Under the pieces are notes generated by a model. The model did not search any database and had not been told where the DNA came from. It saw only the letters and a list, made by a program, of their open reading frames with translations. The position numbers were made by a program, and so were the translations under genes. DNA of 64,000 bases from Escherichia coli (lineage in GTDB: Bacteria; Pseudomonadota; Gammaproteobacteria; Enterobacterales; Enterobacteriaceae): the NCBI RefSeq assembly GCF_003790525.1, contig NZ_CP033636.1; one strand, given 5' to 3'. Shown here in pieces: positions 11,264-12,964 of this stretch; position 1 is the first letter of the stretch, and the number at the start of each line of letters is the position of its first letter.

Positions 11264-12085
11264 TCTACTCTGGCAATTTCATCCATGCTGCCTCTGATCT
11301 GTCAATCGCGGGCGAAACCTCAGGATGAATAACGCTGATGTTAGCAGCTGGTGGAACAAACAGACTTAAATGGAAAATTGCAGTGAGTAAAACAATGCGT
11401 AACGTTGTTGCGGGTTACATTCAGCCGCTAAGCGGTTCCCGGACACTATGCTAAGCGTGGTCAGACGAAAGCTCAGCAGTATCGTCGACATGCAGGAGAC
11501 CGTCAGACAGTCCTCACAAATGCTTGAGTCTGATGCAGCCATATTCCTGAAACGCGCCATAGTTGCGAGGATGCTTCAAAAAATAAAATATCAGGATAGT
11601 GAAGTTTTAAAAGACTGCCTTGGCGATTTTTTTATTTATGAACAACGTGAAAAATTGCGCCGACTTGGCGTGATTACTAACTGGGGGATTAATAAAACAG
11701 CAGACGGGAAGAATAATAAGTTGTGATAACTCAGTAAATATTAATTTAAAAAGCGTCTTCAGAAATAGAAAAAATGCAAATTATATTGCTACGGGTTATT
11801 AGCCGCTGAGGCTGTTTACATATAATACTTCTAAACAGGAGGTATTATGAAAAAACAACTGGCGTACGCTTCAAACTGTTCTGACAGTCTTTATTCGTAT
11901 ATTTATCGCACTCTGCAAAAACGGGCTGGTGATGAGAATGAAAGCCTTTATCAGCAGGCCATTTCCCGCTGCCGTACAGCTAAACAAAAAAAGAAACTGG
12001 CCGGGTATTATGCCGGTCCATGGCAGCTGCGGTGATGCTGCCAACTTACTGATTTAGTGTATGATGGTGTTTTTGAGGTGCTCCA

Positions 12086-12361
12086 GTGGCTTCTGTTTCT
12101 ATCAGCTGTCCCTCCTGTTCAGCTACTGACGGGGTGGTGCGTAACGGCAAAAGCACTGCCGGACATCAGCGCTATCTCTGCTCTCACTGCCGTAAAACAT
12201 GGCAACTGCAGTTCACTTACACCGCTTCTCAACCCGGTACGCACCAGAAAATCATTGATATGGCCATGAATGGCGTTGGATGCCGGGCAACCGCCCGCAT
12301 TATGGGCGTTGGCCTCAACACGATTTTCCGCCATTTAAAAAACTCAGGCCGCAGTCGGTAA
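12086..12361 (+). CDS. insA: IS1 InsA
   Basis: [43 protein letters not shown]... recognised as IS1 InsA. Confidence 0.9.
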
Positions 12362-12783
12362 CCTCGCGCATACAGCCGGGCAGTGACGTCATCGTCTGCG
12401 CGGAAATGGACGAACAGTGGGGATACGTCGGGGCTAAATCGCGCCAGCGCTGGCTGTTTTACGCGTATGACAGGCTCCGGAAGACGGTTGTTGCGCACGT
12501 ATTCGGTGAACGCACTATGGCGACGCTGGGGCGTCTTATGAGCCTGCTGTCACCCTTTGACGTGGTGATATGGATGACGGATGGCTGGCCGCTGTATGAA
12601 TCCCGCCTGAAGGGAAAGCTGCACGTAATCAGCAAGCGATATACGCAGCGAATTGAGCGGCATAACCTGAATCTGAGGCAGCACCTGGCACGGCTGGGAC
12701 GGAAGTCGCTGTCGTTCTCAAAATCGGTGGAGCTGCATGACAAAGTCATCGGGCATTATCTGAACATAAAACACTATCAATAA
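12280..12783 (+). CDS. insB: IS1 InsB frame (expressed as InsAB by -1 frameshift)
   Basis: Recognised IS1 InsB sequence; overlaps insA 3-prime end containing the A-run frameshift window. Confidence 0.85.
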
Positions 12784-12964
12784 GTTGGAGTCATTACCGG
12801 CAGCTGCTTTTCAACGCGTGGTGTAACAATCGCGTCCCTAACACAGCGGTGCTGGCTCTTCTACTCCAGCAGTGCTTATCTCATTTCCAGTGCGAAGAAG
12901 TGATCGCAGCCTGGCAGTAACCCTATCAAGCCCCTTCGTATAGCGGAGGGGCAGGAGATATCTC

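Follow-up and report, generated by a model that had tools for sequence, protein, structure and literature searches.

In the 64-kb stretch of DNA analysed here (hereafter the window), a backbone gene of an IncHI2 multidrug-resistance plasmid, the 98-codon gene of WP_000744346.1, has very probably been split at codon 62 by transposition of an intact IS1B-type IS1. The staggered 9-bp target GGCAGCTGC was duplicated on insertion of the element into this codon, and the event brought no further change, both flanks being collinear with and identical to those of IS1-free relatives. The insertion would be young relative to the IncHI2 backbone and would since have become common to a sub-lineage of plasmids from Salmonella enterica and Escherichia coli.

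Structure of the IS1 element

Reading of the window together with a script check placed a 768-bp IS1 at exactly 12031..12798 on the + strand, between identical GGCAGCTGC 9-mers, and so confirmed the location given in a preliminary description of this DNA. The element begins with GGTGATGCTGCC... and ends with ...GGAGTCATTACC; its left end reads GGTGATGCTGCCAACTTACTGAT, an imperfect inverse of which is found at the right end as ...ATCAATAAGTTGGAGTCATTACC, and 18 of the 23 positions agree between the terminal inverted repeats, IRL and IRR. IRL is overlapped by a promoter-like site that reaches slightly past it (12038..12065, CTGCCA-16-TATGAT), at what we take, from established knowledge of IS1, to be the location of the insA promoter. 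The protein family matches of insA and insB' (PF03811, PF12759 and PF03400; Table 1) all lie far over their gathering scores. An A6C frameshift motif, TTAAAAAAC, is located at 12335..12343 in frame 0 of insA, and a conceptual -1 shift at this motif yields an InsAB' fusion that is open for 232 aa; the insB' frame is accordingly predicted to be expressed as an InsAB' fusion via a -1 frameshift at TTAAAAAAC.

The features that place an element in the IS1 family are all present, namely a length of ~768 bp, imperfect inverted repeats of ~23 bp (GGTGATG... / GGTAATG...), the insA/insB' arrangement, the A6C motif, a 9-bp duplication and near-identity to a reference isoform. All sequence requirements for transposition are intact, and judged by its sequence this copy looks transposition-competent. 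There is no second IS1 copy in the 64-kb window, and a composite transposon was rejected because the window has this single IS1.

Table 1. Features of the IS1 insertion and of the gene it interrupts (window coordinates)
Feature	Coordinates	Strand	Basis
5' part of disrupted gene: 61 native codons; CGG (Arg) and TGA follow, from the junction/IRL	11847..12035	+	ORF listing; 62-aa predicted product P0031
Left copy of 9-bp target-site duplication, GGCAGCTGC	12022..12030	.	Single copy at empty site of pM160133_p1
Complete IS1, IS1B-type	12031..12798	+	Length, ends, comparison with K-12 copies
IRL, left terminal inverted repeat of IS1	12031..12053	+	18/23 vs IRR
insA, 91 aa, GTG start, zinc ribbon and helix-turn-helix	12086..12361	+	PF03811 E=3e-21, PF12759 E=1.7e-30
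insB' frame, DDE domain, overlaps insA	12280..12783	+	PF03400 E=2.3e-78
IRR, right terminal inverted repeat of IS1	12776..12798	-	18/23 vs IRL
Right copy of 9-bp target-site duplication, GGCAGCTGC	12799..12807	.	Abuts IS1 right end
3' remnant: last two bases of codon 62, codons 63-98, TAA 12918..12920	12808..12920	+	Script check

Target-site duplication and the empty site

On the + strand of the 64 kb, GGCAGCTGC occurs only as the two copies flanking IS1; one unrelated copy lies on the - strand at 4009. The empty site was sought by megablast of positions 11000..14000 against PLSDB, in which many IncHI2 plasmids match this segment in two pieces spanning 2,224 bp (3,001 - 768 - 9). Removal of IS1 and one 9-mer from the window (11000..12030 joined to 12808..14000, 2,224 nt) gives a sequence that is identical base for base to the IS1-free IncHI2 plasmid pM160133_p1 (NZ_CP022165.1). 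This plasmid has one GGCAGCTGC at the site, within the annotated 98-aa CDS WP_000744346.1, and the segments 9500..12030 and 12799..14384 of the window are 100% identical to it and contiguous in it (4.1 kb). The flanks are therefore contiguous in an element-free relative and no second IS1 lies nearby, the two features by which a simple insertion is recognized.

The preliminary description had read the structure as a simple transposition in which IS1 split a small ORF of the backbone. That proposal is supported both by the empty site in pM160133_p1 and by 1,252 PLSDB plasmids in which the ORF is uninterrupted; comparison with IS1-free homologous plasmids had been named as the check to make, and pM160133_p1 carries the same uninterrupted sequence and not a different one. 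Against this background it is practically inconceivable that the 9-mers are identical by coincidence, the restored ORF being an artefact and IS1 either brought in by recombination or placed at the breakpoint of a rearrangement. Two given 9-mers are identical by chance with a probability of 4^-9 (~4e-6), the reconstructed 2,224 nt has an exact counterpart with one 9-mer copy, and we found no support for such a coincidence, which is refuted by the empty site and the 1,252 intact ORFs.

IS1 is known to give rise to cointegrates as well as to simple insertions, so the same structure could have been reached by another route, through a replicative cointegrate with another replicon that was then resolved by recombination between two IS1 copies, leaving one IS1 and the 9-bp duplication. 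What this route leaves behind would look exactly like the structure observed, and the sequence by itself cannot separate both routes. Simple insertion is, however, the more frequent outcome of IS1 transposition and the window has neither a second IS1 nor foreign DNA beside the element, which makes passage through a cointegrate highly unlikely.

The interrupted gene

Deletion of IS1 and one repeat restores one continuous ORF from the ATG at 11847, as had been described earlier (11847..12030 joined to 12808 onward). The length then given, about 89 codons with a TAA at 12935-12937, has to be corrected: the ORF is 98 codons long and its stop is the TAA at 12918..12920, positions 12935..12937 read TTC, and the former end coordinate of 12937 was off by 17 nt and the codon count by 9, an arithmetic slip. 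The restored ORF encodes WP_000744346.1, which is annotated on IncHI2 plasmids as a hypothetical protein of 98 aa. Its gene, for example in pM160133_p1 and pECJS-59-244, is 100% identical to the reconstructed ORF in both DNA and protein; it is intact in these two plasmids, whereas in the window it is split by IS1 after codon 61. Ahead of the ATG lies AGGAGG, a good Shine-Dalgarno sequence. The 3' remnant (12808..12920) contains no in-frame start codon and no listed + strand ORF of at least 30 aa.

A search of PLSDB with the reconstructed ORF, another check that had been suggested, found the 297-nt gene uninterrupted in the 1,252 plasmids mentioned above, which are of types IncHI2 and IncHI1. 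By identity, 540 of these fall at or above 99%, 432 at 80-90% and 274 at 60-80%; the records sampled from the 80-90% band belong to an IncHI2 lineage associated with Enterobacter, and those from 60-80% to IncHI1, with pHCM1 among them. Among the three lineages the dN/dS values (Nei-Gojobori) are 0.18, 0.10 and 0.13, with dS from 0.38 to 1.7, and point to purifying selection on the 98-aa protein. An exhaustive HMMER search recovered 28 clusters (at 50% identity), with homologues down to ~30% identity. Their alignment shows conserved ENExLYQ, KQ+K and AGxYxGxWQxLFNAW motifs and a later N, and its four most conserved columns, L23, Q47, G53 and W59, all lie within the 61 residues that are retained in the window. 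AlphaFold2 run on this alignment predicted a confident all-helical fold (pLDDT 91.7, pTM 0.80) with helices at residues 13-40, 45-50, 58-67, 73-80 and 87-97. On the strength of the frame that is open across lineages, the dN/dS of 0.10-0.18 and the confident fold, the 98-codon ORF is a genuine protein-coding gene. The protein matched no family in Pfam, NCBIfam or PHROGs and no structural relative in the PDB, and a literature search by protein accession found nothing. The distant homologues P0046 and P0053 are on contigs of less than 2 kb, whose genomic context is uninformative.

In pHCM1 (IncHI1, S. Typhi) the orthologue is interrupted by an in-frame stop, at codon 47, and two small CDSs are annotated in its place (fetched segment L005, 2498-2797). 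Within the disrupted ORF of the window, an A7 tract, AAACAAAAAAAGAAA, at ~11983-11997 coincides with the exact frameshift point of many database homologues (P0016, P0017, P0019, P0025, P0027 and others), several of which lie on plasmid-sized contigs; these frameshifts reflect real slippage or else homopolymer errors of long-read sequencing. Taken together, the pHCM1 stop and the A7-tract frameshifts show the gene to be dispensable, at least in some hosts, and the stop by itself shows this for the pHCM1 lineage.

These interrupted homologues, and the lack of any Pfam, NCBIfam or PHROG family or structural relative, would also fit a reading in which the ORF is not a functional gene and IS1 entered a neutral spacer without phenotypic consequence. 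We regard this as unlikely, as dN/dS stays at 0.10-0.18 at dS of up to 1.7, the 98-codon frame is open in three diverged lineages and in the ~30%-identity homologues, the fold is confidently predicted and the start codon is preceded by a good Shine-Dalgarno sequence.

Predicted effect on the gene product and on neighbouring genes

The truncated gene is expected to encode 61 native residues followed by an Arg, without the three C-terminal helices of the predicted five-helix protein. Because these helices are lost, the protein, and with it the disrupted gene, is most likely inactivated. Some residual activity of the 62-aa product may be conceivable, given that L23, Q47, G53 and W59 are all retained. 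For comparison with IS1-free siblings, the insertion offers a conserved IncHI gene that has been knocked out naturally.

The disrupted gene belongs to a co-oriented run of small ORFs with short gaps between them, in which it is preceded by those at 10982..11263 and 11448..11726 and followed by those at 12965..13402 and 13464..14006. Whichever way round it lies, IS1 is classically a polar element, which makes reduced expression downstream plausible, and the element may therefore lower expression of the ORFs at 12965..13402 and 13464..14006; a weak promoter-like match at 13427..13454 was counted against such polarity. At the head of the co-oriented run is a 394-aa ORF (9732-10916, WP_001272970.1), which has a weak HTH_ParB match and is annotated as 'DNA-binding protein' in one relative. 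No Rfam family reached its gathering score in the 10-15 kb region of the window.

The knock-out might also be adaptive, with loss of this 98-aa helical protein, a member of an uncharacterised IncHI1/IncHI2 family, being repeatedly tolerated or favoured and the insertion being something other than neutral IS traffic. The observations counted in its favour are the IS1 described here, the nonsense codon of pHCM1, the A7-tract frameshifts and, in another plasmid, an IS1 in the neighbouring gene. We consider this quite unlikely; if true, it could mean, for example, a lower plasmid cost or an altered transfer or host range.

Plasmid context

The window can be assigned to the backbone of an IncHI2 plasmid. 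PLSDB holds 884 records that cover at least 80% of window positions 1..25000, and the four near-identical plasmids with records that were examined all carry the typing IncHI2A/MOBH/MPF_F. Annotated neighbours comprise hok, IS150, DUF5417, an S49 peptidase, traD and mobH, the last two at ~20-25 kb of the window, and a resistance region bounded by IS26 and containing a class 1 integron lies at ~46-60 kb.

Several other mobile or repeated sequences were observed. Two 820-bp IS26 copies (46714-47533 and 58842-59661), 100% identical, inverted and 11.3 kb apart, bracket a part of the resistance region that by similarity contains the class 1 integron with cmlA1, aadA and aph(4)-Ia type genes; their outer 8-bp flanks (CTTTGCGT / CAATACGA) show no target duplication. 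An Rfam AAC_AAD_leader / attI match at 49471-49546 (61.8 bits) marks the cassette junction of the integron, and a 300-nt direct repeat with 86% identity (51127-51426 and 53532-53831, 2.4 kb apart) lies within the same region. Elsewhere, an Rfam ALIL pseudoknot at 32214-32330 (121.5 bits), the frameshift signal of an IS3-family element, indicates another IS there.

Spread and age of the insertion

No plasmid record in PLSDB covers either IS1 junction, and none of the complete RefSeq E. coli genomes spans the left junction. A single apparent junction match among the complete E. coli genomes turned out to come from the ET474 plasmid, where IS1 has inserted independently into the following gene, and pECJS-59-244 was rejected as a record of the same junction because its 24,999-nt match, which looked full-length, has IS1 ~9 kb upstream and the ORF intact. 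The left junction, with the exact 62-aa truncated product P0031, was instead found on 19 draft contigs, including those of GCA_043347365.1, GCA_041371295.1, GCA_024625745.1, GCA_036602815.1 and GCA_003686615.1. Since all 19 end inside IS1, the left junction is the one that could be checked on them; presence of the right junction, at which ...GTCATTACC meets GGCAGCTGCTTTTCAACG, in the draft genomes too would mean that the whole insertion is shared. Entries for P0031 in public collections bear the names of Salmonella enterica and E. coli, and the longest contig listed for it is 253,793 bp. Each of the seven contigs fetched matches the window with 0 mismatches over an upstream flank of up to 10.2 kb, through the junction and on into IS1.

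The 19 contigs might represent repeated independent hits of IS1 at a hot spot and not one ancestral event, in keeping with several independent IS1 insertions in this small-gene block (the ET474 plasmid, pECJS-59-244 and pFLI21_4). Those insertions are, however, all at different sites, whereas in the 19 contigs IS1 lies at one and the same base and in one orientation, and in the seven fetched the flanks are identical throughout. A hot spot is thus very unlikely, and the shared position, orientation and flanks fit common descent of the 19 contigs.

Two junction-bearing contigs (L015 and L016; 2738-4074) carry an extra IS of ~1.3 kb with a DDE_Tnp_1 transposase of 370 aa. It lies downstream of hok, at a place corresponding to ~5921-5932 of the window, from which it is absent, and shows diversification after the IS1 insertion. 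The preliminary description had called the event recent on the basis of the intact duplication. The flanks, which match IS1-free relatives at 100% identity over 4.1 kb, and the absence of the junction from PLSDB and the complete RefSeq E. coli genomes agree with this. An intact 9-bp duplication alone carries no information on insertion age and is no clock. We therefore read the insertion as young relative to the backbone, yet as the mark of a sub-lineage that has already spread and diversified; occurrence of the left junction on 19 draft contigs, and of the product in both Salmonella enterica and E. coli, argues against a one-off. The unique junction of CCATGGCAGCTGC with GGTGATGCTGCC could accordingly serve as an epidemiological marker of one IncHI2 multidrug-resistance plasmid sub-lineage in Salmonella enterica and E. 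coli.

Comparison with other IS1 insertions

The IS, the mechanism and the plasmid backbone are all known, and the call, while correct, is a routine one of an already known kind of event: as a textbook IS1 insertion it has little significance past bookkeeping. Other IS1 copies occur in the same backbone block. In the IncHI2 plasmid of E. coli ET474 (NZ_CP100955.1), an IS1 of the same family splits the neighbouring small hypothetical gene of 145 aa, with a 9-bp duplication of TACGATCGT (L003, 2877-3644); the gene and the site differ from those in the window, which indicates an independent event. Further IS1 copies are located at other sites of the small-gene block in pECJS-59-244 (L014, ~2700-3470) and in pFLI21_4 (L002, between 1239 and 2839).

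Among the IS1 copies of E. coli K-12 (MG1655), IS1B and IS1C are the closest of those compared, with 767 of 768 bases the same as in the window. The sole difference is at IS1 position 704, which is T in the window and A in K-12. IS1A has the same family, length and organisation and is 8 substitutions apart (760/768). The window copy has its inverted repeats, insA, insB', A6C site and 9-bp target duplication in common with IS1B and IS1C and, unlike them, sits in a backbone gene of an IncHI2 plasmid.
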